Notes: generated by a model from the sequence alone, not told the origin. Counted from the stretch's first letter, positions 7,103-32,179 are shown. The stretch: DNA of 64,000 nt from Candidatus Eiseniibacteriota bacterium (GCA_965224245.1 OZ245046.1:1600001-1664000), one strand, 5' to 3'. Translations and numbers: made by a program.

Positions 7103-7103
7103 C

Positions 7104-11723: not shown

Positions 11724-13216
11724 ACGCCAGACCCACGCTCCTCGCGGCGCTCTCGATCCTCGTGCTCGGCTGTGGAGACGACGATCTGGGGCTTCGGTAT
11801 CGGGCCGAGCGCGACCTCTACGGAGCGCGACGCGAGATCCGCCGCCTCACGAGCAACCCCGACGCCGCCGGCGCGATGCAGCAGCTGGCGATCGCGGACA
11901 ACTTCGTCCGTGTCGGTAATCGGTATCGAGACGTCGGCAGGGACGATCCGAGCCCGAGCGAGGCCACGCGATCGACGCGACGCATCGCCGCCAACGCATT
12001 GCTCCTGGCCACCGAGCACTACGCGGCCGCCGGCGAGCTCGATCGGGCGATGGAGATCGTCCTGGACGTCAGGACGTCGTGGCAAGACGACCCGTCGATC
12101 GCGATGGCGGCCCAGACTCAGCTCGTCGAGTTCCTGCAGCGCAACGGGGATCCCGACGAGGTGCTGGCCGCGCTGTGGGATCTGGCCGCGTACCCGCCGG
12201 TGAGCCCGGAAGGCGCGGTTCGACATCCCGTCTTCAACGCCCCGATGGTCGCGGTGCGGGTGGCCGGCGCCGACGGATCCCGCGCACCGGTGGCCGAGGT
12301 GCGCGCGCGCGCGATCGGCTTCTACGAGGACATCCACGGGTCCTGGACCCGTCGTACGCCGGCGCTCCTGGCCGACCTCCATCGTTCGACGCTCCTGGAA
12401 GGGCGCGGCGAGTGGCGCGCGGCCGGACGGCTCCTGGAGAACGCGCTCGAAGCGTATCCGGACTCGGTGCTCGCGGCGCAGGACGCCGCGTCGATCGCGT
12501 TCCGGACCGCGCGCATCTATCTGCGGGATCGGCGCGATCCGGAGGCGGCCACGCGGATGTTGAACCGGACCCGTGCGATCGATCCCGAGAGCGGTGCGGC
12601 CGGAGATGCGACGATGGGACTGGCGGCGCTGGCCTACGAGACGGGCGATCCCGCCCGGGCCATCGCGCTCTATCGAGAGGTCGTGGAGTCACGACGCTTC
12701 GACAAGGAGCGGGCCCCGGTCGCGCAGTTCAGCCTGGCGCGCGTTCTCCAGGCCGAGGGGCGCTGGGAAGAGGCGCTGACGGCGTATCAGGCCTGCCGGG
12801 CGTCGTACCCGAAGACTCCCGAGGGGCTCGAGGTGCCGTTCGTGATCGCCGCGCACCACGTGACGCTCGGAGAGCCGGAGACCGCCCGCGCCGAGCTGGC
12901 CCGGGCGTCGATCGAGTTCCGCAACGTGATCGACACGTTTCCGGGCACCGTGGAGGCCTTCACGGCTTACCGCTACCTGACGCGGGCCTTGCTCGAGCAG
13001 GAGGACTGGTCGGGAGCCGTCCTGACGATGCGCGAGTTCGCCGAGGCGTTTCCGAACCGGGAGGAGGCGCCGGTCGCATTGCTGGAGGCGGCGTCGGTGA
13101 CCCGCTCGAACCTCGAGGACGCCACGGGGAGCGACGCGATCCTCGGCTTGATCGAGGAGCGCTATCCGAACACGCGGTTCGCCGCCGAGGCGCGACGACT
13201 TCGCGAGCAGGGCTGA
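11720..13216 (+). CDS. TPR-repeat lipoprotein (possible PrsT analogue)
   Basis: Lipobox LVLG-C, tandem TPR-like helices (A.F.LA...G.W.EAL..Y....YP); immediately upstream of prsK. Confidence 0.75.
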   Translation: MNARPTLLAALSILVLGCGDDDLGLRYRAERDLYGARREIRRLTSNPDAAGAMQQLAIADNFVRVGNRYRDVGRDDPSPSEATRSTRRIAANALLLATEHYAAAGELDRAMEIVLDVRTSWQDDPSIAMAAQTQLVEFLQRNGDPDEVLAALWDLAAYPPVSPEGAVRHPVFNAPMVAVRVAGADGSRAPVAEVRARAIGFYEDIHGSWTRRTPALLADLHRSTLLEGRGEWRAAGRLLENALEAYPDSVLAAQDAASIAFRTARIYLRDRRDPEAATRMLNRTRAIDPESGAAGDATMGLAALAYETGDPARAIALYREVVESRRFDKERAPVAQFSLARVLQAEGRWEEALTAYQACRASYPKTPEGLEVPFVIAAHHVTLGEPETARAELARASIEFRNVIDTFPGTVEAFTAYRYLTRALLEQEDWSGAVLTMREFAEAFPNREEAPVALLEAASVTRSNLEDATGSDAILGLIEERYPNTRFAAEARRLREQG

Positions 13217-13291
13217 GCCGCCCGGTTGAACCCGCCGCCGCGCGGCGAGCGTCCTGCCGACGCTCGTGGCCGGTGGCACGGAGTGAGTGGG

Positions 13292-15430: not shown

Positions 15431-16671
15431 TCGTCGACGACGACCTGGCCGTGCGCAAGCAGCTTCGCTGGGGGCTCGCCTCGGCATTCGACGTGACCGA
15501 GGCGGCGACGGCCGATGAAGCGATGACCGCGTTCCGGGAGGTCGGCCCGGCCGTGGTGACGCTGGACGTGTGCCTGGACGAGGCCCCGGGCACCCCCGAC
15601 GGCATGTCGCTCCTGCGCGAGATGCTGCGCCTCGATCCCTCGGTGAAGGTGGTCATGGTCACCGCCGACGGCGACGAGCACAACGCGACGCGCGCCCTCG
15701 AGATCGGGGCGTGGGACTACTACGTGAAGCCGATCGAGACGAAGGAGCTGTCGGTCATCGCGCTTCGCGCCGCACACATCCGGCGTCTCCAGGGCGTCCG
15801 CGGCCCCCGGACCGAGTACGCGATCGATCCCCTCGACTTTTCCACGTGGCTGGGCGACTCCACCGTGGCGCGGCGTGTCCAGGCACTCCTCACGTCGCTG
15901 GCGCCGCTCTCGACGCCGGTGATGCTCCTCGGGGAGCCGGGCACCGGTCGGGACCTGGCGGCGCAGGCGTTGGCCGCGCTGAGCGGCGACGCGAGCCCGA
16001 TGATGGTGGAGGGCCGATCGGCCACGCTCGAACGGCGCTCTCCGGATGCGACGCGGCCGCTGTACGTCGACGGCGTACACGAGCTCTCGGCCGCGGATCA
16101 GACGCGACTGGCCGAGTGGATGCAACGGGGCGAGATCGGGCGCCTGATCGTGTCGGCCTTCACCGACGTGGGACACCTGGCCGCACGGGGTCGGCTGGAC
16201 CGGGGTCTCTTCCACGAGCTGGCGACCGCGACCATCGTGTTGCCGCCGCTGAGGGAGCGACCGGACGACGTGGGCACGATCGCCGACCGGCTGGTCTCGA
16301 CCTATGCGCGCCGATTCCGGGACGGCACCGCCGAGCTGTCGCCCGAGGCGCGGGTGGCCCTGATCCGCCACCGCTGGCCCGGCAATCTCCGTGAGCTGGA
16401 GCGCCGCCTCCTGGGAGCGGTTCTGACATCCAGGTCCGATCTCATCCAGGAGGAGGATCTCTGGCCCTCCGAACGACCGACCTCGTCCGGATCGCTCAAG
16501 GCCAACATCTCCGAGCTCGAGCGAACCCTGGTCGAGCAGGCCCTGATCGACTCGAACGGAAACGTCTCGCAGGCCGCCCGGGAGCTGGACGTGAGTCGGC
16601 CGACCTTGCACGCGCTTCTGCGCAAGCACGGGATCGATCCCAAGCCGTACCGCGAAGCGGCGGGGGCCTGA
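15412..16671 (+). CDS. prsR: PrsR-like response regulator (REC + degenerate AAA+ + Fis HTH)
   Basis: LLVVDDD..VRKQLRW, VVTLD (PrsR-type REC), GEPGTGR, LPPLRER, WPGNLREL, NVSQAARELDVSRPTL. The GAFTGA loop is absent. Confidence 0.8.
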   Translation: MRNRLLVVDDDLAVRKQLRWGLASAFDVTEAATADEAMTAFREVGPAVVTLDVCLDEAPGTPDGMSLLREMLRLDPSVKVVMVTADGDEHNATRALEIGAWDYYVKPIETKELSVIALRAAHIRRLQGVRGPRTEYAIDPLDFSTWLGDSTVARRVQALLTSLAPLSTPVMLLGEPGTGRDLAAQALAALSGDASPMMVEGRSATLERRSPDATRPLYVDGVHELSAADQTRLAEWMQRGEIGRLIVSAFTDVGHLAARGRLDRGLFHELATATIVLPPLRERPDDVGTIADRLVSTYARRFRDGTAELSPEARVALIRHRWPGNLRELERRLLGAVLTSRSDLIQEEDLWPSERPTSSGSLKANISELERTLVEQALIDSNGNVSQAARELDVSRPTLHALLRKHGIDPKPYREAAGA

Positions 16672-16679
16672 GGAGCAAC

Positions 16680-18095
16680 ATGGCCTCACACCTGGATCGC
16701 TATCACGACACGACGCTCGCCCAGAAGGCGCTGCTCGTCCTGGTCGCCGTGGTGCTGGGTCTCGTCGCGGCCACGCTGGCGCTGACCTTTCAGGTGAAGA
16801 TCGTCATCGGTCTCATCGCCGGGCTGTGTTTCGGTGCCCTAATCCTGTTGAAGCCCCTCGTCGGCATGGTGTTCCTCCTGATCACGATGCCGGTGCTCGA
16901 GATCTTCCCGTCCGACTTCTTCGGGTCGGGGCTCTTGAACCCGACGAACTTGATTCTGGCCACGATCACGGTCTCGGTCACGCTCTATCGGACGTTCGTG
17001 CTGAAGATCGGCATCTCCAGGCGAAGCTGGGTGGCTCCGATCCTCGTGTACGGGATCGTGCTCACGTTCTCGATTGGGTTGAACCTGATCAAGGGAGAGG
17101 CCTCGGTGGCGGCGGTGGCCGGGCTCACGCGAACCTATCTGAACGGGGCGTACCTGTACTTCCTGACCACCAACTGCATCGAGAGCGAGCGGGATGCCCG
17201 TTACATCTTCTACACCGTGCTGTTCACGGTCATCTTCGTGGCGCTGTGGGGGCTGTTCGAGTATCGAAACGACATCCTCGCCGGCATGGCTTCCTCGCGC
17301 GTCCGGATCAGTGGCCGCGTGGGTCAGCCGAACTCGTTCGGGGCGTTTCTGTGCTACTACCTGCCGTTCCTGATCGGCGCGCTCCGCGTCCGGAACGTGC
17401 CCAGGCTCTGGCGGCTCTACGCGCTGGGGGGGACGGTGGCCGTGCTCTTCGCCCTCATGTTCACCCAGTCGCGGGGCGCCTACCTGGGGCTCGTGTGTTC
17501 GCTCGTGTTTCTCGCGGTGGCGGTCAATCGGCGACTGCTCCTGGTGATGCTGGTGGCCGGGCTCCTGCATCCGCTGTGGCTCCCTTCGCAGGTGGTCGAG
17601 CGGATCCAGTACACGTTCGATGGCCAGGGTGCGTACGGCGTGGACAGCTCCTCGGAGTCGCGTATCAAGTTCTACAAGGCGGGCGTCCGGCTCTGGACCG
17701 AGAGTCCGGTCTGGGGTCACGGGTTCGGTGGCTTCTCACGCATGTCGGCCGAGAGAGGAATCACCGAGACGCGCCGCGCCGCACACAGCCTCTACATCCA
17801 GATGCTGGTGGACACGGGGCTGGTGGGGCTGACCGCCATCTTCTACATGTGGGGACATCTCTGGCGCCGGTCGTGGCGCCTGTGGAAGACGGCGACGGAT
17901 CCGTCTCGGAGAATCTTCGGCGAGTGCTTTCTCGCGTGCCTGGTGGCCATCGTGATGGTCAACATCTTCGGCATCCGTTTCTACAATTTCATGGAGATCG
18001 GGTACTTCTGGGCGCTGTGCGCGGTGCTGGTCTTCTACACCGAGCCGGCCCGCGACCGGATTCGTGCCGGGAGCGAGGCGAGGAGAGCCGCGTGA
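16680..18095 (+). CDS. wzy: O-antigen ligase / Wzy polymerase family protein
   Basis: Many TM helices, GQPNSFG, TQSRGAYLG, SSESR...PVWGHGFG, AHSLYIQMLVDTGLVG. Confidence 0.85.
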   Translation: MASHLDRYHDTTLAQKALLVLVAVVLGLVAATLALTFQVKIVIGLIAGLCFGALILLKPLVGMVFLLITMPVLEIFPSDFFGSGLLNPTNLILATITVSVTLYRTFVLKIGISRRSWVAPILVYGIVLTFSIGLNLIKGEASVAAVAGLTRTYLNGAYLYFLTTNCIESERDARYIFYTVLFTVIFVALWGLFEYRNDILAGMASSRVRISGRVGQPNSFGAFLCYYLPFLIGALRVRNVPRLWRLYALGGTVAVLFALMFTQSRGAYLGLVCSLVFLAVAVNRRLLLVMLVAGLLHPLWLPSQVVERIQYTFDGQGAYGVDSSSESRIKFYKAGVRLWTESPVWGHGFGGFSRMSAERGITETRRAAHSLYIQMLVDTGLVGLTAIFYMWGHLWRRSWRLWKTATDPSRRIFGECFLACLVAIVMVNIFGIRFYNFMEIGYFWALCAVLVFYTEPARDRIRAGSEARRAA

Positions 18096-19354
18096 GAATC
18101 CTCTACCTGGCTCAATTCTTCAATCGTCCCGACGAGGCCGGGGCCGGGCGACACTACGCGTTCGCCAGCGAATGGGTACGCCGGGGGCACGACGTCACCG
18201 TGATCACCGGGCAGCAGAACTACCGCACCGGCGCGACGCGACGCGCGAGCCTGCGCCCGTACGTCGAGACCGTGGACGGCGTCCGGGTCGTTCGGACCTA
18301 CGTGTACACCGGCTACCGGGGCAGCTTCCGCCGCCGGTACCTGAACTTCGCGTCGTTCACCGCCTCGTCGGTGGTGGCGGCGCTCTCGGAGCGCCGCCCC
18401 GACGTGGTCTTCGCATCGTCGCCGCCGTTGACGGTGGGCGTGGCCGGGGAGTGGGTTTCCCGGCTCAGGCGGGTGCCGCTCGTGGCCGACATCCGCGACC
18501 TGTGGCCGGAATCGGCGGTCGCCCTCGGCGTCGTCTCCGATGGTCGCTTCGTGCGCCTCGCGTCCGGGACGGCCCGCCGGGTCTACCGGCGGGCGTCGCG
18601 CGTGGTCGGGGTCACCGGTGGCATCGTCGAGGGCCTGGTGGCCGCGGGGGTGCCGGAGGGCAAGATCGTCAAGATCACCAACGGCGTGGACGTCGGCCTG
18701 TACGAGTCACCGGCGGCGCCGGATTCACTGCGCACGGAGCTGGGACTGGACGATCGCTTTCTATGCGTCTACGTGGGGGGAATGGGCATTCTCCACGACG
18801 TGGGGACGGTCGTCGAGGCTGCGGCGCGGCTCCGGGACGTCCCCGTTCATTTCCTCCTGATCGGACAGGGTGACGACCGCCCACGCCTCGAGGCCCGGCT
18901 GGATCGGGAGGGCATCACGAACGTGACGTTCCGCGATCCGATCCCCAAGGAGCGCGTGCCGGGGGTCATCGCGAGCGCCGATTGCGCGGTCTACTCGCTC
19001 AGGGACGATCCGTTCTTCCGGGGGACCTTTCCCAACAAGAACTTCGACTATCTGGCCGCGGCGTGCCCGGTGGTGCTGGCGGTCGAGGGGGAGTCGGCCG
19101 AGCTCGTCCGCGCCGCGGGGGCGGGATTCGTCACGCCGCCGGGATCGGGAGCGGGGCTCGCCGAGGGGATTCGCCGGATGCTGGCGCTGCGGCCCGCCGA
19201 GCGCCAGCAGATGGGTGAGCGTGGGCGGGCGCACGTTCTGGCCAACTACCGTCGCGTGGATCTGGCGGCGAGGCTCGAGACGATCCTCCAGGACGTCGTG
19301 GGCGATCGCACGGTCGATCCGGGACGCGAGGACGGAAGACGAGGGGTTGCATGA
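18092..19354 (+). CDS. Glycosyltransferase family 4 (WbuB/CapI-like)
   Basis: RILYLAQFF, GHDVTVIT, NFASF, ASSPPLTV, IRDLWPES, ITNGVD, FPNKNFDYLAAACPV. Confidence 0.88.
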   Translation: MRILYLAQFFNRPDEAGAGRHYAFASEWVRRGHDVTVITGQQNYRTGATRRASLRPYVETVDGVRVVRTYVYTGYRGSFRRRYLNFASFTASSVVAALSERRPDVVFASSPPLTVGVAGEWVSRLRRVPLVADIRDLWPESAVALGVVSDGRFVRLASGTARRVYRRASRVVGVTGGIVEGLVAAGVPEGKIVKITNGVDVGLYESPAAPDSLRTELGLDDRFLCVYVGGMGILHDVGTVVEAAARLRDVPVHFLLIGQGDDRPRLEARLDREGITNVTFRDPIPKERVPGVIASADCAVYSLRDDPFFRGTFPNKNFDYLAAACPVVLAVEGESAELVRAAGAGFVTPPGSGAGLAEGIRRMLALRPAERQQMGERGRAHVLANYRRVDLAARLETILQDVVGDRTVDPGREDGRRGVA

Positions 19355-20490
19355 GCATCGATGACCGTACGTTCCAGATCAGCCGTCCGGTGTGTCCCGA
19401 CGTCGACGCCCTCGTGCCCGAGCTCCGCGAGATCCTGGAGTCGGGTCAGCTGACGAACGGTCGCCACGTGCGCCGGCTGGAAGAGGCCGTCTCGGCGTAC
19501 ACGGGGGCCGAGGTGGTCGCGCTGGCGTCGAACACATCGGGCATGATGCTGAGCTGGAGCGCGTTCGACCTGGCCGGCGAGGTGCTGGTCCCGGCGTTCA
19601 CGTTCCCCGCCACCGCGCACGCTCTTCGCTGGAACGGGCTCGAGCCGGTGCTCGTGGATTGCGACCGCGAGACGTTCAACATCGACCCGGACGACGTCGA
19701 GCGGAAGTGCACGTCGCGCACGGTCGGGATCGCGCCGGTGTACATCTTCGGGAATGCGCCGGACTGGGAGCGACTCGGTGCGATCGCGCGCCGCCACGAT
19801 CTTCGGGTGGTCTCGGATGCGGCCCATGCGTTCGGCACGACCATCCACGGTCGACACGCCGGTCACTTCGGGGACGTCGAGATCTTCTCCCTGGCCCCCA
19901 CGAAGATCCTGACCACGGCCGAGGGCGGGCTTGCGATCACGCGTGACGCCGAGCTGGCCGACGTCCTCAGGCGAACGCGGAACTACGGCAATCCCGGCGA
20001 TTACAACTGCCGCGAGCTGGGTCTGAACGCGCGGATGACCGAGGTGCACGCACTTCTCGGGCTGCACGGCCTGGCCGGTCACGAGGCGCAGCTCGAGCAC
20101 CGGCAGCGCCTGGCCGCCCGTTATCGCGAGCTCCTCGGCGACGTGCCGGGCATCGCGTTCCAGTCGATCGGGGCGGGCGTGCGCACAACCTACAACTACT
20201 TCGCGATCGTGGTCGAGCCGGGGGCGTTCGGTCTCACCAACCATGAGCTGAAGGCGTTTTTGGCCGGGCACGGCGTCGAGAGCAAGGTGTACTTCCATCC
20301 GCCCATTCACCGGCAGACGCTGTACGCGTCGCTGGCCGGCGCGGAGGTCCCCAATACCGAGTGGCTGTGCGAGCGGATCCTGTGCATCCCGCTGACCGGT
20401 CACCTCGACGAGGCCGACGTCGAGACCATCGCCGGACTCGTCGTCGATGCGCGGCGGACGGCGCGCTCCCGAGAGGACGCGGTGACGTGA
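19351..20490 (+). CDS. DegT/DnrJ/EryC1/StrS sugar aminotransferase
   Basis: PAFTFPAT, SDAAHAFG, PLP-lysine motif FSLAPTKILTTAEGG. Confidence 0.9.
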   Translation: MSIDDRTFQISRPVCPDVDALVPELREILESGQLTNGRHVRRLEEAVSAYTGAEVVALASNTSGMMLSWSAFDLAGEVLVPAFTFPATAHALRWNGLEPVLVDCDRETFNIDPDDVERKCTSRTVGIAPVYIFGNAPDWERLGAIARRHDLRVVSDAAHAFGTTIHGRHAGHFGDVEIFSLAPTKILTTAEGGLAITRDAELADVLRRTRNYGNPGDYNCRELGLNARMTEVHALLGLHGLAGHEAQLEHRQRLAARYRELLGDVPGIAFQSIGAGVRTTYNYFAIVVEPGAFGLTNHELKAFLAGHGVESKVYFHPPIHRQTLYASLAGAEVPNTEWLCERILCIPLTGHLDEADVETIAGLVVDARRTARSREDAVT

Positions 20491-21140
20491 AGCACGAGGG
20501 CCTCTATGCGCGGGCGCTGAAGCCCGCCCTCGATCGTCTGGTCGCGCTCGCGATCGTCGTGATCGGTGCGTTGCCCGGTCTGGCGCTGGCGCTCGCGGTG
20601 CGCCTGGACTCGCGCGGACCGGTCTTCTATCGACAGGTACGTGTGGGGAAGAACGGTCGTGTGTTCCAGATGCTGAAGTTCCGGTCCATGGTGGTGGGAG
20701 CCGAGCACCAGGGGGCGGGCATCCGCGTCGAGAGGAACGACGCCCGGATCACCCGCGTCGGGAGGCTCCTCCGCCGGACGAGCCTCGACGAGCTGCCGCA
20801 GGTCTTCAACATCCTGCGGGGCGAGATGAGCGTCGTCGGACCCCGGCCGGGGCTCGAGTTTCAGGTGGCGAAGTACACGCCGGAGCAGCGCCGCCGCCTG
20901 CTGGTGGCACCGGGCATCACGGGATGGGCCCAGGTGAACGGCCGGAACGCGATTCCGTGGGACGAGCGCATCCGGCGCGACCTCGAGTACGTGGATCGGA
21001 TCTCGCCGGCGCTCGACCTCGAGATCCTCTGGCGGACGATCGGCACCGTCCTGAACCCGCGGGATCAGATCGCGGCCAAGGCGTTCTTCGGCGAGCGGCC
21101 GGGTGACGATCGCCCTACCGCGTCGGGGGACCGCGCATGA
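20487..21140 (+). CDS. Initiating phosphoglycosyltransferase (PglC/Bac_transf)
   Basis: [20 protein letters not shown], intact catalytic [30 protein letters not shown]. Confidence 0.9.
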
Positions 21141-22306
21141 GCCCGATCCGGACGATACGTCGGGCCGCGGCGCTCCTGGCCTCATCGGCCGCGCTCGTGG
21201 TGCCGGCCACCGCGGATCCGACCGTGGCCGAGCCGATGCCCGCGGCGCGAGACGTGCAAGTGGATCCGGACTTCGACCCCGGGCACCTGTCGCCGCTGGC
21301 CCGGACGTGGTACGACCGCGTGGTCGAGTCCATCGAGGCCAGCCGCGAGACGATCGAGACGCGCGCCGCGTCCGACGATCTCTACCTCCTGGGCCGGTTC
21401 GTCGGCGACTATCAGGCCGCGCTGGTGGCGGCGCTACGGGCCACCGGAGATCGGCGGTTCCTCGATCGAGTGTACGAGGTGGCCGAGATCGCGCGCGCGA
21501 GCCTCCGGGACGCCTGGGACGACGGCACGACCGACGGTCACCTGAACTGGCGGATGCGGACGGCGGACGCGCCGCCGTACCACGGCAACGACCGGCACCA
21601 GATGGACGAGGCGATGGTGCACGGCAACGTCGCGCTGTGGGCGGCCGTGCTCGACGCGAACCGGGACGTGGACGCCCGCTTCGCGGAGGCGGCCGACTTC
21701 TGGCGCGACTATCTCGAGAACCACTTCCTGGCCAAGTGGCGCGTGCGAGCCGGCGGTGACCGCGTCGCGAGCTGGGACGGACCGCGCGGGTTCTACAAGC
21801 GCTTCGTTCACCCCCGGATCAATCAGCTCCGGGCGGCCCACTACCTCTGGCGCCTCACGGGGGACGGGTTCTACCGGGAGCGGGAGCGGAGCGTCTCGGC
21901 GGACGTGCTGGGTGCGATCGTCGAGAACCCGACGCACCCGGGTGCCGTGCGCTGGAAGCACCAGGTATCCGGCAAGGACGAGGGCTGGCAGAAGCTGAAC
22001 TACGCGCAGTATGCGCTGCGCGTGATGATCGAGCTGTACGAGGAGCAGGTCGACGGCTTCGACGAGTGGCTGATGACGCGTCTCGCGACGACGGTTCGCG
22101 ACGTCGTGTTCGCCGAGGCGGATGAGCACCGGATGACCGCCCGCATCTCGGGCGAGGGCAGCACGGGACTTCGCGTGTTCGCGCTCAGCGCGTACGCGGC
22201 CTGGGATCCCACCGGACGCATCCTCAGGATCGCCGATGCGACCTACAAGCCCGGATCGTACGGCCTGTCCACGGCCGCGTACGCGTTGTGGGCCCTCTGC
22301 CCATGA
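21137..22306 (+). CDS. Secreted hypothetical protein, probable (alpha/alpha)-toroid fold
   Basis: Signal peptide (ATA|D); ATGDRRFLD and LTGDGFYRE helix-repeat motifs; coupled to the PGT gene. Confidence 0.6.
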   Translation: MSPIRTIRRAAALLASSAALVVPATADPTVAEPMPAARDVQVDPDFDPGHLSPLARTWYDRVVESIEASRETIETRAASDDLYLLGRFVGDYQAALVAALRATGDRRFLDRVYEVAEIARASLRDAWDDGTTDGHLNWRMRTADAPPYHGNDRHQMDEAMVHGNVALWAAVLDANRDVDARFAEAADFWRDYLENHFLAKWRVRAGGDRVASWDGPRGFYKRFVHPRINQLRAAHYLWRLTGDGFYRERERSVSADVLGAIVENPTHPGAVRWKHQVSGKDEGWQKLNYAQYALRVMIELYEEQVDGFDEWLMTRLATTVRDVVFAEADEHRMTARISGEGSTGLRVFALSAYAAWDPTGRILRIADATYKPGSYGLSTAAYALWALCP

Positions 22307-22435
22307 CGCCCACGGTCGCGAGGACGGGACGCGCCGCGCGGCGGCGCCGGAGACGGCGACGACACGCCCTCACGCCCCGTGCGTGGCGGCGATCACTCGA
22401 CGCGCCTCGGCGCGCGTGAAACGAGGAAGGACGAC

Positions 22436-24112
22436 GTGGCAAACCGACCTGACGGCACCGGCGCCCGATCGGCCGAGGTGACCGGCGTACGGCGCATCCA
22501 GATCTACGACACGACGCTGCGCGACGGAACGCAGGGGCTCGGCTTCAACCTCTCGGTCGGCCAGAAGCTCGAGGTGCTCAAGCAGCTCGATCGCATGGGT
22601 GTGGACTACGTCGAGGGAGGCTACCCGCTCTCCAACCCGAAGGACGCGGCGTTCTTCGCCGAGGCTCGCGACGTCCGGCTGAACCGGACGAAGCTCGCCG
22701 CGTTCGGCATGACGCGGCGAAAGGGCGTCTCCGCGGCCGAGGACACCGGAATGCGGGCGCTCGTGGCGGCCGAGACGCCGGTGGTCACCGTGGTCGGCAA
22801 GACCTGGGACTTCCACGTGCGGGAGGTCCTGCGGGTGAGCCTGGACGAGAACCTGGCCATGATCCGCGACTCTCTCGGGTTCCTGGCCGACGCGGGGCGC
22901 GAGGTCATCTACGACGCGGAGCACTTCTTCGACGGCTACCGGGAGAATCCCACCTATGCGCTCGAGACGCTCCGGGCGGCCCTCGACGGACGGGCCACCA
23001 CGCTCGTCCTCTGCGATACGAACGGCGGCACGATGCCGTCGGTGCTCGGGGACATCGTGGGCGAGGTCCGGCGCACGTTCCCCGACGTCGCGATCGGGAT
23101 CCACCCGCACAACGACTCGGCGCTGGCGGTGGCCAACGCGCTCGAGGCGGTGCTCCGGGGCGCCTCTCAGGTGCAGGGCACGATCAACGGCGTCGGCGAG
23201 CGCTGCGGCAACGTCGATCTGATCCCGGTCGTGGCGAACCTGAGCCTGAAGCTCGGGTTCGACGTCCTGGGGGGCGCGCCCGACGTCTCGCGTCTCACCG
23301 AGCTCAGCCGCTTCGTGAACCACATCGCCGATCGGGACCCCGAGCGCAACCAGGCCTACGTCGGCGAGTCCGCGTTCGCGCACAAGGGCGGCATGCACGT
23401 CCACGCCGTTCAGCGCAACGTCGCCACCTACGAGCACGTGCCGCCCGAGTCGGTGGGCAACGAGCGGCGCATTCTGGTCAGTGAGCTGAGTGGCGTCTCG
23501 AACATCCAGGACCGGATCGCGACGCTGATGGGGCGGCGGGAGCTCGATCGCGATACGCTACGGATGATCCTCGATGCGGTCAACCGCCTCGAGAAAGAGG
23601 GGTACGTGTTCGAGGAGGCCGAGGCCAGCTTCGAGCTGCTCGTGCGCCGCCTGATCGGCGAGGAACACCGTCACTTCCGGCTGGATCACTACCAGGCCAG
23701 CGTGTTCAAGATGGAGGGCGCTCACCCGGTCTCGACGGGGCTCGTCCGCGCACGTGTCGACGGCGAGGTCGTCCGGGGCACGTCCGAGGGCGAGGATCCG
23801 CTCTCGGCGCTGGACGGCGCGCTCCGGCGCGCGCTCGAGACGCACTTCCCCGAGCTGGACACGGTCGACTGCATCGATCGGAAGTTCCGCGCGATCGACA
23901 AGCCCGGCACGCGCTCGTGCCCGGTTCGTGTGCTGACCACGTTCGCCTGCGGGACGCGTCACTGGACCACGGTGGCCATCGGGGAGAACGTGATCGATGC
24001 CGGCCTCCAGTGTCTGGTAGAGGGCTTCGAGTGGCATCTCCTTCACGCGAACGAGATGCTGGACGGTGACCTGGCAGGCACGCCGGGCCGTGCGGAAGGG
24101 AGCACCCGGTGA
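22436..24112 (+). CDS. cimA: Citramalate synthase (CimA-type DRE-TIM) with divergent regulatory domain
   Basis: IYDTTLRDGTQG, EGGYPLSNPKD, GKTWDFHV, YDAEHFFDG, LCDTNGG, GIHPHND, GERCGN, AFAHKGGMHV, SELSG, EAEASFEL. GTG start after GAGGAAGG. Confidence 0.85.
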   Translation: MANRPDGTGARSAEVTGVRRIQIYDTTLRDGTQGLGFNLSVGQKLEVLKQLDRMGVDYVEGGYPLSNPKDAAFFAEARDVRLNRTKLAAFGMTRRKGVSAAEDTGMRALVAAETPVVTVVGKTWDFHVREVLRVSLDENLAMIRDSLGFLADAGREVIYDAEHFFDGYRENPTYALETLRAALDGRATTLVLCDTNGGTMPSVLGDIVGEVRRTFPDVAIGIHPHNDSALAVANALEAVLRGASQVQGTINGVGERCGNVDLIPVVANLSLKLGFDVLGGAPDVSRLTELSRFVNHIADRDPERNQAYVGESAFAHKGGMHVHAVQRNVATYEHVPPESVGNERRILVSELSGVSNIQDRIATLMGRRELDRDTLRMILDAVNRLEKEGYVFEEAEASFELLVRRLIGEEHRHFRLDHYQASVFKMEGAHPVSTGLVRARVDGEVVRGTSEGEDPLSALDGALRRALETHFPELDTVDCIDRKFRAIDKPGTRSCPVRVLTTFACGTRHWTTVAIGENVIDAGLQCLVEGFEWHLLHANEMLDGDLAGTPGRAEGSTR

Positions 24113-24756
24113 AGTTCCTCATGATCGGGGCCGGACAGACCGGCCGGCTCCTGGCCGAGATCGTTCACCGGATCCCCGGGCTCGAGTGTGTCGGCATGCT
24201 CGACCGGGATCCGGCGCTGCACGGACAGTCGTTCTACGGCGTCTCCGTGCTGGGCGGGGAGGAGCTCCTGGAGGCGCACGTGGGCAAGGTGGAGGGGGCG
24301 CTGCCGGTCGTGGGCGACCTGACGGCCCGTCTTCGCCTGTTTAGACGGGTGCAGGCCATGGGGTATCGCGTGCCGACGATCATCGAGCCCTCGGTGGTGG
24401 CCGCCTCGGACGTGCAGTACGGCGCGGGCGTCTTCATCTCGATGAACACGGCGATCCTGACCAACGTCCGCATCGGCGACTACGGGTTCATCGGAACCGG
24501 TGTCAACGTGCTCCACGACACGACGATCGGCTCGAACTGCGTCGTCGGCGGCGGCACGGTCATCGGGGCGTCGGTCACGGTGGGCAACAACGTGGCATTC
24601 GGGACCGGCGTCACGGTGGCCTCGGGTCACAAGCGAATCGGCGACAACGCGAACGTCGCCGCCGGCTCGGTCATTCTGAAGGACGTGCCCGACAACGCGT
24701 TCGTGCTCGGCAACCCGGCGCGCGTGATCGGCTTCAACCCGTCCGTGGAGCTGTAG
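24109..24756 (+). CDS. NeuD/PglD-family sugar acyltransferase
   Basis: N-terminal Rossmann-like IGAG, hexapeptide repeats, His in VLHD, KDVP...GNPAR. Confidence 0.85.
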   Translation: MKFLMIGAGQTGRLLAEIVHRIPGLECVGMLDRDPALHGQSFYGVSVLGGEELLEAHVGKVEGALPVVGDLTARLRLFRRVQAMGYRVPTIIEPSVVAASDVQYGAGVFISMNTAILTNVRIGDYGFIGTGVNVLHDTTIGSNCVVGGGTVIGASVTVGNNVAFGTGVTVASGHKRIGDNANVAAGSVILKDVPDNAFVLGNPARVIGFNPSVEL

Positions 24757-24765
24757 GAGGACGCC

Positions 24766-26256
24766 GTGAGCTCGATCTTTCAGGACATCCTCGGTCGCAC
24801 CGACGGGCTCGATCGCCCGGCGTTCCACGGCGACCGTGCGTTCACCCACGGGGCGTTCCTCGACCACGTGGCGCGCTTCGTCGGCGCGTTCGAGCGGGCC
24901 GCCATCACGCCGGGCGATCGCGTCGCGCTGTGCGTGGATCAAGGGGCCGACTACGCGGCCGCGCTGGTGGCGCTGCGCCGCGTGGGCGCGGTCGCGGTGC
25001 TGATGGCCCCCGACTGGACGGATGCCGAGAAGGACCGCGTGGCCGACGTGGCCGAGGTCCGCTTCGCGGTGGCCGACATGCCGCTTCTGGGCACACGCGC
25101 CGTCGCGTCGGCCGAGAACGTGAGCGGCGACGCGACGCTCCTCGCGTTCGACGTCGTGCCGACCGAGCCGAGCGGTCCCGACGACGCGGTGCTGATCTTC
25201 ACGTCCGGTACGACCGGGGCTCCGAAGGGCGTGATTCTGACCGAGTCGTGCATCTCGGCCAACGTGCGAGCCGTGTCGCGCTACCTGTCGCTGGGTCCCG
25301 CCGACGGCTCACCGGTGTTCACTCCGCCGTGCTACGCCTACTCGCTCTCGCTGAACCTGACCCATCTATGGTCGGGCGCGGCCATGCTGCCGGTGCCGGC
25401 GGGGCTGATGTTCCCGATCGAGATCCTTCAGGGCATCGCGCAGCATCGGTTGACCGGCGTCTCCGCCACGCCGACCGCGTTCCGGCTCCTGGCCCAGGTC
25501 GACCCGGACGCACCGGTGGATCTCACCTCGGTGCGCTACGTGATGACCGGCGGACAGTTCCTCGATCTCCGCCTCGTGCGGACACTGGGCGAGCTGTTCC
25601 CGAAGGCCGACGTCGTGAACATGTACGGGTGCTCGGAGAACTCGCCCCGCATCAGCTATCTCGTCGTGGACGGCCAGCACGGGCTGGACGACGCGGGCTA
25701 CTACGCGGTGGGCCGCGCCGTCGACGGCACGCGGATCGAGATCCTCGACGGCGAGGGCCGTCCGGTGGCGCCGGGCACGACCGGCGAGGTGGTGATCTCG
25801 GGGACGAGCCTGATGCGCGGGTACTGGCGGGATCCGGAGAGCACCGCCGAGCGCCTCGTGGACGGGCGGTTCCACACGCGTGACCTCGGATATCTGGACG
25901 CCGAGGGGCTGTTGCACCTGACCGGCCGCGCCACCAGCATCATCAACATCGGCAACGAGAAGGTGTCGCCCGAGGAGGTCGAGAAGGTGCTGGCCGGGGT
26001 CGAGGGTGTCCGCGAGGCGGCCGTCTACGGCGCGCCCGATCCGATGCTGGGCGAGAGCGTGCACGCCCTAGTGGTGCTGGAGCCCGGGGCACGGGTGCAG
26101 GTGACCGACCTCCAGCGTCACTGCCGTCGCGTGGTGTCCGGGTACAAGGTGCCCAGACGGATCGACATCGTGGCCACGCTTCCGCGCACGTTGTACGGCA
26201 AGATCGATCGCACGCGTCTGACCGAGATGGCTCGCGAGAACGCGACCATCGGCTGA
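24766..26256 (+). CDS. Class I adenylate-forming enzyme (acyl-CoA/acyl-ACP ligase)
   Basis: IFTSGTTGAPKG, NMYGCSE, FHTRDLGY, GR...INIGNEKVSPEEVE, LPRTLYGKIDR. Confidence 0.88.
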   Translation: MSSIFQDILGRTDGLDRPAFHGDRAFTHGAFLDHVARFVGAFERAAITPGDRVALCVDQGADYAAALVALRRVGAVAVLMAPDWTDAEKDRVADVAEVRFAVADMPLLGTRAVASAENVSGDATLLAFDVVPTEPSGPDDAVLIFTSGTTGAPKGVILTESCISANVRAVSRYLSLGPADGSPVFTPPCYAYSLSLNLTHLWSGAAMLPVPAGLMFPIEILQGIAQHRLTGVSATPTAFRLLAQVDPDAPVDLTSVRYVMTGGQFLDLRLVRTLGELFPKADVVNMYGCSENSPRISYLVVDGQHGLDDAGYYAVGRAVDGTRIEILDGEGRPVAPGTTGEVVISGTSLMRGYWRDPESTAERLVDGRFHTRDLGYLDAEGLLHLTGRATSIINIGNEKVSPEEVEKVLAGVEGVREAAVYGAPDPMLGESVHALVVLEPGARVQVTDLQRHCRRVVSGYKVPRRIDIVATLPRTLYGKIDRTRLTEMARENATIG

Positions 26257-26314
26257 CGTCGGGCTCGGGAAACGGCTCTCGGCGTCCCGCCGCCGGGCGG
26301 GAGGAGGTTCCACG

Positions 26315-26557
26315 GTGAGTGTTCGCGACGACGTCCTTGGGTATCTGAAGCGCATCAACCCGACCGTCATCGAGCGGATGCCCGAGCCCGAGGGCCTCAA
26401 GCTCCGGCGGGTGCTGGACTCGCTCGACATGATGGACTTCATCACGCATCTCGAGCAGAGCTACTCGATCAAGGTAACCGACGAGGACGTCCTGACGCGG
26501 AACTTCGAGACGGTGGGGTCCGTGATCCAGTTCGTGGAGTCGAAGACGACCTCGTGA
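26315..26557 (+). CDS. Acyl carrier protein
   Basis: 80 aa; phosphopantetheine site LDSLD; NFETV; GGAGGAGG RBS. Confidence 0.85.
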   Translation: MSVRDDVLGYLKRINPTVIERMPEPEGLKLRRVLDSLDMMDFITHLEQSYSIKVTDEDVLTRNFETVGSVIQFVESKTTS

Positions 26558-26613
26558 TCGTTCGAGGCCCCGACCTCGACCCGCGGCTCCGAGGCGGGCT
26601 CCGTCCCGTAGCG

Positions 26614-26646
26614 GAACGCCCCTCCGCCGGATGACGAAGGGGCGTC
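26614..26646 (-). terminator. Hairpin between the convergent ACP and ctpA genes
   Basis: Minus strand ACGCCCCTTCG-8nt-CGGAGGGGCGT stem; weak U tail. Confidence 0.5.
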
Positions 26647-26666
26647 TTGCGGACGGTGCGGTCGAG

Positions 26667-28334
26667 CTACTGATCCTGGACGGCCGGCTCCTGCGCGCTG
26701 CCCTCCTGCACCACGTCCAGGAACGCCTCGATCTCTCCGTTGGCGAGCAGCGTCGCCTCGTAGAAGTGCGTGAGCGCCTCGCGCACCCCCGGGTCGTTGT
26801 CGATGATCACCTGATAGCGCCGGTTGGGTCCCCAGACGTTGCTGGCGATCTCGACCCGGAGCCAGTGATCGACGAACGGTCGCTCTGCGGTGATGGTGTC
26901 CGCCGTGAGGTCCTCGTTCTCGGGGGCTCGCCCGAGCACGTAGCTCGTGAACTGGCCGAACATCTCGTCGCTGGTCTTCCAGGAGGCGAGGAAGTCCTCG
27001 AACGATCCCAGATCGGGATGCTCGTTGCCGATGGTCTCGTTGGCGAAGTTGAAGAAGTAGCGGTCCTGCGGGTTCAGGAGAGCGGCCTGCGTGTCGTTCA
27101 GCGAGTAGTCGGGATCGACGACCACGTCGGGCATGATGCCGCCGCCGCCGTAGACGGGGCGCCCGGCGGCCGTCATGTAGGTCGGACGCTCGTCGATCTC
27201 GTGGCCTTCCTCGACGAGCTCGGCCGCGCCGGCGTCGGTGCCGGCCTCGGTCAGGTACTCGTGACGGTCCTTGCCCTTGTACGGGCGCTGGATCAGCCGG
27301 CCGCTCGGGGTGTAGTACTTGGCCACGGTCAACAGGAGGGCGCCGCCGCCGCGGATGGGGAACTGGCGCTGAACGAGCCCCTTGCCGAACGACGTGGTGC
27401 CCACGACCAGCCCGCGATCCCAGTCCTGGACGGCGCCCGAGACGATCTCGGACGCGGACGCGCTGCCCTGATCGATCATCACGATCAGGGGATAGCGCGG
27501 GTGCGTGGAGCCCTCGGTCGAGAAGTACTCCTCGGACGAGCCGCGAATGCGACCCTTGGTGTAGACGACGAGCTTGCCGCCCGACACGAACTTGTCGGCC
27601 ACGGCGATGGCCTGGTTGAGGTAGCCGCCGGTGTTGCCGCGCAGGTCCAGGACGAGCCTCTCCATGCCCTGATCGGCCAGCTCGTTGATCGCCTCCTCGA
27701 GCTCGTCGGCGGTGTGCGCCGAGAACCGGTTGGCCCGGATGAAGCCCGTGTCCGCGCTCAGCATGAAGTAGTGAGAGACCGACTTGATGGCGATCTTGGA
27801 TCGCTTGATCTCGACGTGGATGAGCGCGTCCTCGCCCGGCCTCTCGATGCCGACCTCGACGACGGATCCCTCCGGTCCGCGCAGACGCTCCATGACCTCG
27901 GGATTGGTGATGCCGATGGCGCTCTCGCCCTCGATCTCGACGATGCGGTCGCCGGGCTTGATGCCGAGGTCCCACGACGGTGAGCCCTCGATCGGCGAGA
28001 TGACGGTCAGCACGTCGTCGACGATCTCGAACGAGATGCCGATGCCCGAGTACTCGCCGGTGTTGAGCTCCTGCATGCGGCGGTTGGCGTCGGGCCGGAG
28101 GTAGTTCGTATGGGGATCGAGGTCCTTCAGCATGCCCTCGATCGCGTCGTTGATCATGGCCTCGGTGTCGACCGTGTCGACGTAGTTGTGCTTGACCAGG
28201 GTCAGGATCTTGTTGAAGCGCTGGATCTGCTCGAGCAGGTCGGAGCTGTCCGCGCGGGCGATCGACGGCGGCACCAGAGCCAGCGTCGTGGTGATCAGCA
28301 GCAGTGCGAGCGATCGGGTCCGGGGCGTCGTCAT
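26667..28334 (-). CDS. ctpA: S41 carboxyl-terminal processing protease (CtpA/Prc)
   Basis: Signal peptide, LDPHT, PDZ (GIKPGDRIVEI), LDLRGNTGG, catalytic SASASEI, FGKGLVQ, AKYYTPSGR. Confidence 0.92.
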   Translation of the reverse strand: MTTPRTRSLALLLITTTLALVPPSIARADSSDLLEQIQRFNKILTLVKHNYVDTVDTEAMINDAIEGMLKDLDPHTNYLRPDANRRMQELNTGEYSGIGISFEIVDDVLTVISPIEGSPSWDLGIKPGDRIVEIEGESAIGITNPEVMERLRGPEGSVVEVGIERPGEDALIHVEIKRSKIAIKSVSHYFMLSADTGFIRANRFSAHTADELEEAINELADQGMERLVLDLRGNTGGYLNQAIAVADKFVSGGKLVVYTKGRIRGSSEEYFSTEGSTHPRYPLIVMIDQGSASASEIVSGAVQDWDRGLVVGTTSFGKGLVQRQFPIRGGGALLLTVAKYYTPSGRLIQRPYKGKDRHEYLTEAGTDAGAAELVEEGHEIDERPTYMTAAGRPVYGGGGIMPDVVVDPDYSLNDTQAALLNPQDRYFFNFANETIGNEHPDLGSFEDFLASWKTSDEMFGQFTSYVLGRAPENEDLTADTITAERPFVDHWLRVEIASNVWGPNRRYQVIIDNDPGVREALTHFYEATLLANGEIEAFLDVVQEGSAQEPAVQDQ

Positions 28335-28493
28335 CGGCCGCTCCATCAGGTGGGAGTCTCGTCGTTTCGGGGGCTCGGTCGCGGCCCTCGTCGTGTCCGG
28401 AGGCTGGGCCGCCGAAGGTCGCGTGCGAGGGGTCGCCGACTCCGCGCCGACGGTCACCTCGGCGGGTGCGCGGCGCGTCGACCGTAACTACCG

Positions 28494-28567
28494 GCGGACT
28501 ATACCACAGGTTCCGTTAAACTCTATGTCGGCAGGCTCTTGCGCGCTCATGACGGTTTACCTACCCT
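28494..28567. promoter_or_regulatory. Divergent sigma70-like promoters (ctpA / SDR operon)
   Basis: Minus strand: extended -10 TGgTATAGT (ACTATA at 28498-28503). Plus strand: TTGCGC (28539)-17 nt-TACCCT (28562). Confidence 0.4.
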
Positions 28568-28614
28568 CGGCGATCGGTTTCTGTGTTCGAACACGGCGAA
28601 GGGATGGGACGGGC

Positions 28615-29607
28615 GTGGAGATCTTCCTGACCGGCGGCACCGGATACCTCGGAGCGCGGCTGGCGCAAACCCTTGTGGCCAGAGGGCATCGGTTGCGCGC
28701 GCTGTACCGCTCCCCCGAGCGGGCGCCCCGCGCCGGTGCCTCGGTGCTGCCCGTTCGAGGGGATCTCGAGCGCCCGGACGCGTTGCGCGACGCGATCGAC
28801 GGTGTGGATGCAATCGTGCACACCGCCGCGATGGTCCAGAGCTACGTGCGCGATCCCGACCGGATGCGCCGGGTGAACGTGGACGCCGTCGAGCGCGTGG
28901 TTCAGCTCGGCCGCGAGCTCGGTGTTCCGCGTATCGTGTACACGTCGAGCTTCATGGCGCTGGGGCCCAGCTCGTCGCACCCGCGCACCGAGGACGATCC
29001 GTACGCGCGCGAGACCTTCCACAATCACTACGAACGCACGAAGTACCTCGGCGACCAGGTCGCGCGTCGCCTGCAGTCCGAGGGGGCACCGCTGACGATC
29101 CTGTACCCGACGGTCATCTTCGGACCGGGCGGGCTCACGCAGGGCAACTTCGTGGGCAAGATCGTGCGCGACTTCGTGAACCGGAAGCTCCCGGGACGGC
29201 TCGGACGCGGCGACGCGCTGTGGAACTACGCGTTCGTGACCGACGTGGTCGACGCGCATCTGCTGGCGCTGGAGCACGCACCACCGGGATCGCGATACAT
29301 CATCGGCGGTGACAACATCACGCTGGACGGGTTCATCGCCACGCTCGAGGAGGTCTCGGGCGTCCCCGCGCCCACGCGACGCGTGCCCCGGGCCGCCGCC
29401 AAGGTGATCGCCGCGCTGATGGAGGCCAAGTGCGCCGTCCTGGGCGGGCAGCCCGATCTGACGCGCGAGGTCGTCGACGTGTACTACCGGGACTGGGCGT
29501 TCTCCTCGGACCGGGCCATGCACGACCTGGGGTACCGGCCGCGCCCGTTCCGGGATGCGCTGTCCGACACCGTGGACTGGGCGCGCGCGAGCGGGGCGTC
29601 CGCGTGA
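28615..29607 (+). CDS. Extended SDR, farnesol dehydrogenase (FLDH)/HpnA-like
   Basis: TGGTGYLGARL, YTSSFMALG, YERTK, LYPTVIFGPGGLT..N, LPG..G.G, W.FSSDRA..DLGYRPR. Confidence 0.8.
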   Translation: MEIFLTGGTGYLGARLAQTLVARGHRLRALYRSPERAPRAGASVLPVRGDLERPDALRDAIDGVDAIVHTAAMVQSYVRDPDRMRRVNVDAVERVVQLGRELGVPRIVYTSSFMALGPSSSHPRTEDDPYARETFHNHYERTKYLGDQVARRLQSEGAPLTILYPTVIFGPGGLTQGNFVGKIVRDFVNRKLPGRLGRGDALWNYAFVTDVVDAHLLALEHAPPGSRYIIGGDNITLDGFIATLEEVSGVPAPTRRVPRAAAKVIAALMEAKCAVLGGQPDLTREVVDVYYRDWAFSSDRAMHDLGYRPRPFRDALSDTVDWARASGASA

Positions 29608-32150: not shown

Positions 32151-32179
32151 TTGACTTCGCGTCGGCGCTGCTCTAGCAT
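32151..32179 (+). promoter_or_regulatory. Sigma70-like promoter of the wbp operon
   Basis: TTGACT (32151)-17 nt-TAGCAT (32174) in an AT-richer intergenic region. Confidence 0.55.

Follow-up and report, generated by a model that had tools for sequence, protein, structure and literature searches.

The last four genes of an exopolysaccharide (EPS) operon in a 64,000-nucleotide stretch of a Candidatus Eiseniibacteriota genome (GCA_965224245.1 OZ245046.1:1600001-1664000, hereafter the window) encode a citramalate synthase (CimA), a PglD-like N-acyltransferase, an adenylate-forming ligase and an acyl carrier protein (ACP). Judging from sequence comparison, this cassette is probably an acyl-donor module that adds a citramalate-type acid to an amino sugar, acting in the order CimA, ligase and ACP, PglD-like transferase and, finally, phosphoglycosyl transferase (PGT). 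Such an acylation had been put forward in a preliminary description of the window, and comparative evidence now supports it: the cassette is conserved, two of its genes are fused in one genome, a variant occurs in another, its CimA proteins are set apart from other CimAs, and the isoleucine pathway is missing.

In the proposed scheme, CimA would condense pyruvate and acetyl-coenzyme A (acetyl-CoA) to free (R)-citramalate, as its family membership and conserved catalytic columns suggest. The ligase, of the ANL superfamily, would adenylate one or other carboxylate of citramalate and load it as a thioester onto the dedicated ACP. The PglD/PerB-type transferase would then move the citramalyl group from the phosphopantetheine arm of the ACP to the 4-amino group of what is presumably a UDP-4-amino-4,6-dideoxy-hexose, an acceptor that the PglF-like dehydratase and DegT aminotransferase of the same operon would supply. 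The adjacent PglC-like PGT would transfer the N-citramalyl sugar phosphate to undecaprenyl phosphate, making it the first sugar of a repeat unit polymerised by Wzy and exported by Wza/Wzc. The predicted product is an anionic EPS bearing an alpha-hydroxy acid. This scheme is the simplest one that uses each conserved gene exactly once.

The co-location on which the preliminary description had based its proposal recurs in other genomes. The arrangement cimA, pglD-like gene, ligase, ACP is kept in 7 of the 206 genomes searched from the window's phylum (G000, which holds the window, G013, G462, G463, G470, G472 and G474, the last split over two contig ends) and in one Acidobacteriota metagenome-assembled genome (MAG; G061, locus L041). 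The 206 genomes were searched with the transferase as query, and an orthologue (at least 50% identity) was detected in eight of them, the seven with CimA cassettes and one, G006, with a variant described below. A search of 61 relatives returned one true CimA orthologue, that of G013 (55% identity), where tblastn recovers CimA, PglD, ligase and ACP in the same order; the other matches are short, HMGL-like and about 30% identical. The Acidobacteriota cassette was detected by scanning a genome collection with the transferase and is rare, as G061 alone has a transferase match among 401 sampled Acidobacteriota genomes.

The window's CimA, transferase, ligase and ACP are 64, 67, 57 and 54% identical, respectively, to those of the Acidobacteriota MAG, and 53-55, 50-54, 49-54 and 31-53% identical to the copies of their own phylum. 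All four are thus nearer to the Acidobacteriota genes, indicating that the cassette moves as a unit. The GTGA overlap between cimA and the pglD-like gene noted in the preliminary description is present in the window at 24109-24112, and in the Acidobacteriota MAG the cimA open frame ends 4 nucleotides beyond the pglD start. The cassette of this MAG is flanked by a PglF fragment, two DegT aminotransferases, WbpB/D-like genes, a PGT and a GT4 glycosyltransferase; those of G462 and G463 are flanked by a PGT, a GINT1_N-like protein and an aminotransferase. A PGT adjoins the cassette in the window, G061, G006, G462 and G463, and a DegT aminotransferase does so in the window, G061, G462 and G463.

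Relatives of the cassette proteins are also found in a collection of 5.8 billion proteins, where the transferase subfamily comprises 68 clusters at E ≤ 1e-40 (the window's own included) and the cassette-type ligase has about 20 matches at 48-61% identity. Several matches to different cassette proteins have a longest contig of the same size, which is circumstantial evidence of co-location: sizes of 41875, 8528, 43371 and 5280 are shared by the CimA, ligase and transferase match lists, sizes of 16082, 6544 and 7188 by the CimA and transferase lists, and sizes of 16947, 35334, 145513 and 6900 by the ligase and transferase lists. A metagenome scan with two peptide patterns from a three-sequence PglD-like alignment returned 15 loci, all at 45% identity or less and over short parts only. 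One ligase from a cultured alphaproteobacterium, Phaeospirillum tilakii (WP_377318715.1), is 53% identical to the cassette ligase domain and was not counted as part of a cassette; no PglD-like match at E ≤ 1e-40 and no CimA match among the 120 listed lies on a longest contig of equal size.

In the Acidobacteriota MAG, the transferase and the ligase form a single open reading frame (ORF) of 725 amino acids (L041 9033-11207, plus strand), joined by an Ala/Pro/Gly-rich linker. The NCBI annotation independently calls PglD_N, Hexapep and AMP-binding domains in this protein, the sole fusion of its kind among the 25 database hits of that search. The variant cassette of G006 (L082, C57, 8010-12632, minus strand) has the order PGT, ACP, synthase, PglD-like transferase and ligase. 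Its synthase is a NifV-like homocitrate synthase of 406 amino acids (338.8 bits, under the cut-off) that lacks the LeuA_dimer domain. The transferase of G006 is 53% identical to that of the window, and its ligase is 40% identical to the window's, against 49-57% for the ligases of the other cassettes. The pairing of a swapped condensing enzyme with a diverged ligase is suggestive, as a single case, of a ligase that reads the product of the synthase. The variant also suggests that related modules form a family and differ in the 2-hydroxy dicarboxylic acyl group they produce.

The best solved relatives of the window's transferase by sequence are PerB (E 4e-19), PglB-ATD, VioB, Pcryo_0637, WeeI and PglD. 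PerB, VioB, PglB and PglD are known N-acetyltransferases of 4-amino sugars, and all of these relatives belong to a single class acting on nucleotide-linked amino sugars. The predicted structure (mean predicted local distance difference test score, pLDDT, 77.7) has an N-terminal alpha/beta domain resembling PglD_N followed by a left-handed beta-helix (LbH), with a TM-score of 0.85 to PerB (4eaa) and of 0.81 to PglB-ATD. His136 aligns with the catalytic His141 of PerB and is invariant in all 39 family members compared. The fusion to a ligase and the partnership with an ACP and CimA imply a donor for this transferase that is not acetyl and is carried by the ACP.

We propose that the ligase is a citramalate:ACP ligase. 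Its core motifs T146-S147-G148, K154-G155 and Y477-G478-K479 (with the C-terminal catalytic Lys) are invariant in 23 cassette-type ligases. Three Arg residues are also invariant (R240, R257 and R295). Among solved structures, the ligase is nearest to a feruloyl/fatty-acyl-CoA synthetase and to oxalate-CoA ligases; malonyl-CoA synthetase follows at a greater distance. The phosphopantetheine attachment site of the ACP (D35-S36) is invariant in 9 of 9 sequences. Complex prediction for three transferase chains and one ACP gave contacts that agree to at least 94% across runs, a partner pLDDT of at least 84 and a score of 0.53 (best of three controls, 0.00). In the calibration of the prediction tool, 58 of 80 solved complexes and 2 of 110 mismatched pairs passed the mark; scores of 0.60 or less comprise 7 of the 80 solved complexes and both mismatches, so that passes in this range are more often wrong than right unless the pair was likely beforehand, and the transferase–ACP run, with its own alignments and a trimer, differs from the calibration set-up.

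CimA scores 598.4 bits against TIGR00977 (equivalog cut-off 450) and only 173-189 bits against homocitrate-synthase models, whose cut-offs are 414-463. It has HMGL-like (PF00682), HCS_D2 (PF22617) and LeuA_dimer (PF08502) domains, each above its gathering score. The longest ORF starts at 22379; the likely start is the GTG at 22436, which follows the ribosome-binding site AGGAAGGA and agrees with a database gene call of 558 amino acids. A FastTree tree of 124 sequences, the 8 cassette CimAs and 116 of the top database hits, has a branch with a support of 99 that sets the cassette CimAs and 16 metagenome proteins apart from 100 others. The same branch received a Shimodaira–Hasegawa-like approximate likelihood ratio (SH-aLRT) support of 99.9 in a quick IQ-TREE tree (LG+G4, 54 sequences), in which the others are represented by 30 of the 100, sampled across the FastTree clades. 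As the root of the tree is unknown, this is a split, not a proven clade. Many proteins on the other side are named from Phycisphaerae or Tepidisphaeraceae (Planctomycetota-type). For 7 of the 16 metagenome CimAs that group with the cassettes, the longest contig has the same size as that of a match to the PglD-like transferase, the ligase or both. Within the cassette CimAs, those of the window and the Acidobacteriota MAG form one sub-group and the other Eisenbacteria copies a second.

The differences between cassette and other CimAs are concentrated in the C-terminal LeuA_dimer domain. Of the catalytic columns with a conservation of 90% or more across the 100 other CimAs, the window's CimA retains 161 of 178 (90%), and of the LeuA_dimer columns conserved to this degree it retains 31 of 57 (54%); the means of the two cassette sub-groups are 88% and 91% for catalytic columns and 49% and 42% for regulatory columns. 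H163, beside the catalytic Glu, is kept in the window's CimA and is Q in the clade B CimAs. We read this pattern as ordinary chemistry with feedback control that is probably altered or lost, which fits a CimA no longer tied to isoleucine.

The genomic context agrees with such an uncoupling. No leu or ilv gene lies within the window, in line with the preliminary description. That description had also regarded a sole cimA of housekeeping type as evidence against a role in glycan acylation. The first part holds literally, as there is no second cimA or leuA in the genome (a 6.94-Mb assembly, 97.4% complete), where the window's CimA is the only match to TIGR00977, to the Pfam HMGL-like family and, by tblastn, to its own sequence. 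In substance it does not hold, since this cimA is accompanied by neither IlvD nor LeuC/LeuD and is not among housekeeping genes. The IlvD/Edd family (PF00920) has no match in the window's genome or in any of G061, G013 and G001, and no LeuD above the family cut-off was detected in any of these four. The only aconitase-family genes of the window's genome encode a mitochondrial-type aconitase and a fused homoaconitase, neither of which is LeuC/LeuD. IlvC is present. Without IlvD and LeuC/LeuD, the CimA has no isoleucine pathway to feed, and the organism appears to be auxotrophic for branched-chain amino acids. G001, the nearest relative, has aconitase-family genes yet lacks any HMGL-like gene.

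CimA outside the cassette has a different setting. A Phycisphaerales MAG (G607) has no TIGR00977 match and was therefore unusable as a housekeeping control, so its phylum was sampled instead. A TIGR00977 CimA is encoded in 14 of 41 sampled Planctomycetota genomes; IlvD is present in 5 of the 5 tested, and in 0 of 4 loci does a PglD-like gene, a ligase or an ACP lie within about 8 kb of cimA.

Because a homoaconitase is present, we also weighed a role of CimA in lysine synthesis by the aminoadipate route. The fused, fungal-type homoaconitase (G000:C1:5164718-5166724, minus strand) scores 766 bits against TIGR00139, above the cut-off, and the genome has two extra isocitrate/homoisocitrate-dehydrogenase-like (Iso_dh) genes (G000:C1:2367459-2368640, minus strand, and G000:C1:3942397-3943611, plus strand). 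Apart from the cassette CimA it has no homocitrate synthase, and it lacks LeuA, LeuCD and IlvD. A LysA-like gene (278.8 bits against a cut-off of 297.9) suggests that lysine is made by the diaminopimelate (DAP) route.

Several observations weigh against a citramalyl-transferring cassette. The transferase falls 5 bits short of the TIGR03570 cut-off (155.5 against 160.8 bits), with PglD_N at 22.6 bits against a gathering score of 23.4. As far as we know, acetyl-CoA is the donor of every characterised PglD/PerB-class enzyme, and none that depends on acyl-ACP is known to us. The top curated matches of the ligase are generic fatty-acid and acyl-CoA ligases, all under their cut-offs; oxalate- and malonate-CoA ligases are among its solved relatives, yet are not the closest, and no feature of its sequence singles out citramalate as the substrate. 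The predicted docking of the ACP on the transferase lends only weak support. CimA retains its regulatory domain, and the 100 CimAs used for comparison are assumed to be housekeeping enzymes, a point checked only on the separate sample of Planctomycetota genomes. No completeness is given for the Acidobacteriota MAG. In G470 and G472 the cassette has housekeeping genes around it, and neither a PGT nor an aminotransferase lies within about 8 kb. Finally, a gap of 129 nucleotides separates cimA from the gene upstream in the window, so that cimA may or may not be co-transcribed with the sugar genes.

In a rival reading, the PglD-like protein would be an ordinary acetyl-CoA-dependent N-acetyltransferase, with CimA, ligase and ACP making either an O-linked substituent attached by another enzyme or an unrelated small molecule. 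The acetyl-CoA dependence of all solved relatives, the distance of the cassette from sugar genes in G470 and G472 and the weak transferase–ACP prediction speak for it. We consider it unlikely, since transferase and ligase are one polypeptide in the Acidobacteriota MAG and the four-gene order is kept in 8 genomes with no other transferase conserved alongside. The window also encodes a second LbH acetyltransferase (35640-36416) beside its own sugar genes, so acetylation does not need the PglD-like enzyme.

A different order of steps would lead to the same end product. The ligase may load acetate or another short acid onto the ACP, and the CimA homologue may condense the acyl-S-ACP with pyruvate and keep the thioester, so that citramalyl-S-ACP, linked through C4, passes directly to the transferase. 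This would spare the cell the hydrolysis and re-activation of a thioester. HMG-CoA lyase, of the HMGL-like family, acts on an intact thioester, and the diverged C-terminal domain and the separate grouping of the cassette CimAs could reflect a changed partner. We hold this order to be similarly unlikely: the 90% of ordinary-CimA catalytic columns that are kept argue for the usual reaction, hydrolysis included, and the ligase does not resemble acetyl-CoA synthetases.

The sugar may also be acylated with another acid, such as 2-ethylmalate or homocitrate, if the CimA-clade enzyme prefers a 2-oxo acid other than pyruvate, or the acceptor may be a 2,3-diamino uronic acid, acylated at its 3-amino group, in place of a 4-amino-6-deoxyhexose. 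The NifV-like enzyme of the variant cassette indicates that the module tolerates different condensing enzymes, and the change of H163 to Q in the clade B CimAs points the same way. As to the acceptor, 6 kb further downstream the window has a WbpA/B/D/E-like block, WbpB/D-like genes adjoin the Acidobacteriota cassette, and N-malyl groups are known on the 3-amino group of GlcNAc3NA, according to a review of marine bacterial O-polysaccharides (PMC3210612). For the window this seems improbable. Its CimA matches the citramalate-synthase equivalog at 598 bits and the homocitrate-synthase models at 173-189 bits, and it retains H163 together with 90% of the catalytic columns that are conserved; its transferase has a PglD_N-type N-terminal domain and a fold like that of the 4-amino-sugar enzymes, and the cassette directly follows a DegT aminotransferase and a PglC-like PGT.

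That cimA is a housekeeping isoleucine or lysine gene lying by chance beside an EPS operon is highly improbable and largely refuted here. In favour of it, cimA is the sole LeuA-family gene of the genome, its allosteric domain is retained, and the genome has the fused homoaconitase (TIGR00139, 766 bits), the two extra Iso_dh-family genes and IlvC, but IlvD and LeuC/LeuD occur in none of the three cassette genomes tested, the adjacency to three partner genes is kept in 8 genomes of two phyla with a start/stop overlap, G001 has aconitase-family genes with no HMGL-like gene at all, the LysA-like gene points to the DAP route, and the homocitrate-synthase models score far under their cut-offs.

If the cassette acts as a citramalyl-donor module, it may well represent a new family of glycan-tailoring modules, in which a LeuA-family Claisen enzyme taken over from amino-acid metabolism (CimA, or a NifV-like homocitrate synthase in one case) is the local source of a 2-hydroxy-2-alkyl dicarboxylic acid, a dedicated ligase and ACP activate it and a PglD-fold enzyme transfers it in amide linkage to an amino sugar. 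Dedicated acyl-donor genes for the N-acylation of 4-amino sugars are known; what is new is the condensing enzyme and, probably, the ACP-dependent PglD-fold transferase.

Among the similar known systems are the bacillosamine pathway (PglF-PglE-PglD-PglC) of Campylobacter and Neisseria and Caulobacter PerB. The window shares with these a 4,6-dehydratase, a DegT aminotransferase, a small PGT and a PglD/PerB-fold transferase that has the catalytic His, whereas the known enzymes take acetyl-CoA and the window's transferase is tied to a ligase, an ACP and CimA. LpxA and LpxD are LbH enzymes that acylate UDP-sugars from acyl-ACP donors, and DltA/DltC are a ligase and carrier that decorate a cell-envelope polymer. 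LpxA and LpxD are among the weak relatives of the window's transferase, but these systems belong to other subfamilies and transfer fatty acyl or D-alanyl groups, and the transferase lacks the C-terminal ACP-docking domain of LpxD. The exosortase-A-associated acyl-CoA ligase/ACP pair (TIGR03098) is similar in placing a ligase and an ACP in an exosortase-type EPS locus with PrsK/PrsR-like regulators; the window's ligase is not a member, scoring 212.5 bits against a cut-off of 592.35, and to our knowledge the TIGR03098 system has no CimA or PglD-like partner. The window's CimA is similar to the Geobacter-type enzyme (TIGR00977) in scoring above the equivalog cut-off, in its three domains and in the 90% of conserved catalytic columns. 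It differs in its lack of a downstream pathway, its separate grouping, its diverged regulatory domain and its glycan-gene neighbours.

The nearest precedents for the proposed substituent are of two types. The tetronate pathway proposed by Morona and colleagues in 1995 reportedly reduces an activated C4 acid and is said to include no acid-making enzyme, as far as gene roles have been assigned. In Vibrio cholerae O1, the 4-amino group of perosamine carries tetronate, for which the O-antigen locus has the dedicated genes VC0248-VC0252 (wbeK-O); one product, WbeL (471 amino acids), has a putative ATP-binding domain and is needed for O antigen (PMC3441752). That system is like the cassette in placing a hydroxy acid on a sugar 4-amino group and, by gene content, in the ACP, ligase and LbH transferase that the cassette has. 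On the descriptions available, the cassette is set apart by its lack of reductases and by an acid made de novo by a Claisen-condensing enzyme. Amide-linked malic and 2-hydroxyglutaric acids, including N-malyl amino sugars, are found in marine bacterial O-polysaccharides, with examples in Pseudoalteromonas rubra, Vibrio vulnificus, Shewanella algae, Flavobacterium psychrophilum and Tenacibaculum maritimum (PMC3210612). As in the proposed product, a C4-C5 hydroxy-dicarboxylic acid is amide-linked to an amino sugar in a surface polysaccharide. The difference lies in the acid, malic or 2-hydroxyglutaric, and the string 'Citramal' occurs 0 times in that review (PMC3210612).

Literature searches returned no link of citramalate or citramalate synthase to a polysaccharide, a provisional result as most subscription journals that publish O-antigen structures fall outside the search. 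The matches listed for citramalyl with polysaccharide concern itaconate or citramalyl-CoA-type metabolism and include no glycan structure. Equally provisionally, we found no work joining tetronate, perosamine and acyl carrier protein, and none naming PglD with acyl-ACP.

Were the proposal correct, the products would be N-citramalyl (or N-homocitryl) sugars of the bacillosamine type, substituents of which we found no record in bacterial polysaccharides, and both the acyl group and the route to it would be new to bacterial surface glycans. The transferase, a PglD-type enzyme, would be the first of its class to be fed by an acyl-ACP instead of acetyl-CoA, and CimA, an enzyme of central metabolism, would have been recruited to cell-surface chemistry in lineages without branched-chain amino-acid synthesis. 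The annotation 'citramalate synthase' in such genomes would then not be evidence of isoleucine biosynthesis. The four genes are a compact, portable module, and in bacillosamine-making hosts they could provide a carboxylated chiral acyl handle for glyco-engineering.

The window has a base composition of about 70% G+C, and genes were therefore called by third-position G+C and family scans. Gene identities come from Pfam and NCBIfam profile scans, with scores compared to the curated cut-offs (Table 1). The seven genes from aminotransferase to ACP listed in the preliminary description were all confirmed on the plus strand and at the positions given there. Its designation of the locus as an EPS operon also proved apt, as the same strand upstream carries a PglF-like dehydratase, Wza, Wzc, an EpsI domain, PrsK/PrsR-like regulators, Wzy and a GT4 glycosyltransferase; the region 6035-19354 is an EPS locus of the exosortase/PEP-CTERM type.

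Table 1. Features of the EPS locus and the acyl cassette, in window coordinates.
Feature	Position	Strand	Score or context
WbaP-like N-terminal region, PglF-type UDP-GlcNAc 4,6-dehydratase (Polysacc_synt_2) and C-terminal Bac_transf domain in one 963-aa ORF	3231-6122	+	
Wza	6035-7102	+	EPS operon
Wzc-like kinase	7071-9380	+	EPS operon
EpsI-domain protein	9505-10908	+	EpsI 56 bits, above cut-off
TPR protein	11720-13216	+	EPS operon
PrsK-like kinase	13226-15430	+	273 bits, cut-off 300
PrsR-like (PEP-CTERM-box-type) sigma-54 response regulator	14941-16671	+	239 bits, cut-off 503
Wzy/O-antigen-ligase-like protein	16680-18095	+	EPS operon
GT4 glycosyltransferase	about 18056-19354	+	EPS operon
DegT/DnrJ/EryC1 pyridoxal-phosphate aminotransferase, PglE-like	19351-20490	+	PF01041 309.6 bits
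Small PglC-like PGT, Bac_transf	20487-21140	+	210.7 bits
Secreted hypothetical protein	21137-22306	+	signal-peptide-like N-terminus
CimA-type (R)-citramalate synthase, cassette clade	22436-24112	+	TIGR00977 598.4 bits
PglD/PerB/PglB-type N-acyltransferase (NeuD/PglB/VioB-type hexapeptide)	24109-24756	+	TIGR03570 155.5 bits
ANL-superfamily adenylate-forming ligase	24766-26256	+	PF00501 200.2 bits, PF13193 62.6 bits
Acyl carrier protein, PP-binding	26315-26557	+	PF00550 24.0 bits, cut-off 20.8

The 963-amino-acid ORF at the start of the locus probably catalyses the first step to a 4-keto-6-deoxy sugar (Polysacc_synt_2 373.7 bits, residues 367-649; Bac_transf 82.5 bits, residues 744-932). Its parts are a WbaP/WcaJ-like membrane region (residues 94-342), the dehydratase (362-649) and a PGT catalytic domain (744-935), so that the locus has two PGT domains, this one and that of the small PGT. 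The aminotransferase, whose best NCBIfam matches are DesI and PseC (each under its cut-off), would then yield a 4-amino-4,6-dideoxy sugar nucleotide. It overlaps the small PGT by 4 nucleotides (GTGA, 20487-20490), as the PGT does the secreted protein (ATGA, 21137-21140). The likely start of the small PGT is the GTG at 20487, its longest ORF beginning at 20361. The ORFs of the PrsK-like kinase and the PrsR-like regulator overlap, so the true start of the regulator probably lies further downstream.

The secreted protein encoded before cimA has no Pfam or NCBIfam match and falls among glycosyl-hydrolase-like clusters in a protein atlas based on language-model features. We place it outside the acyl module because it is absent, by tblastn, from every related locus. 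A paralogue with 52% identity is encoded elsewhere in the genome (C1:4586700-4587743, minus strand), and the secreted protein may be an EPS-trimming enzyme.

A scan of 16000-29000 for promoters and terminators gave nothing above shuffled sequences, with no terminator-like site 3' of the ACP gene. Four sequencing runs contain the stretch, all from one study and one sample that may be the source of the assembly, and no RNA run is among those listed. The array stops at this gene, and the next one (26667-28457, minus strand) encodes a convergent S41 protease. Further downstream, a WbpA/B/D/E-like sugar-nucleotide block (32177-37554, plus strand) encodes a nucleotide-sugar dehydrogenase, a TviC-like epimerase, a UDP-GlcNAc 3-dehydrogenase-like oxidoreductase, the second LbH acetyltransferase and a DegT aminotransferase. 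The route resembles the synthesis of a 2,3-diacetamido uronic acid, and the block could be an alternative source of acceptors for the cassette. On the 3' side of the polysaccharide region, the window encodes a large Lhr-type helicase (37798-42423, plus strand), an SNF2-family helicase (58140-60275, minus strand) and a tyrosine recombinase of the phage-integrase family (61029-62066, minus strand).

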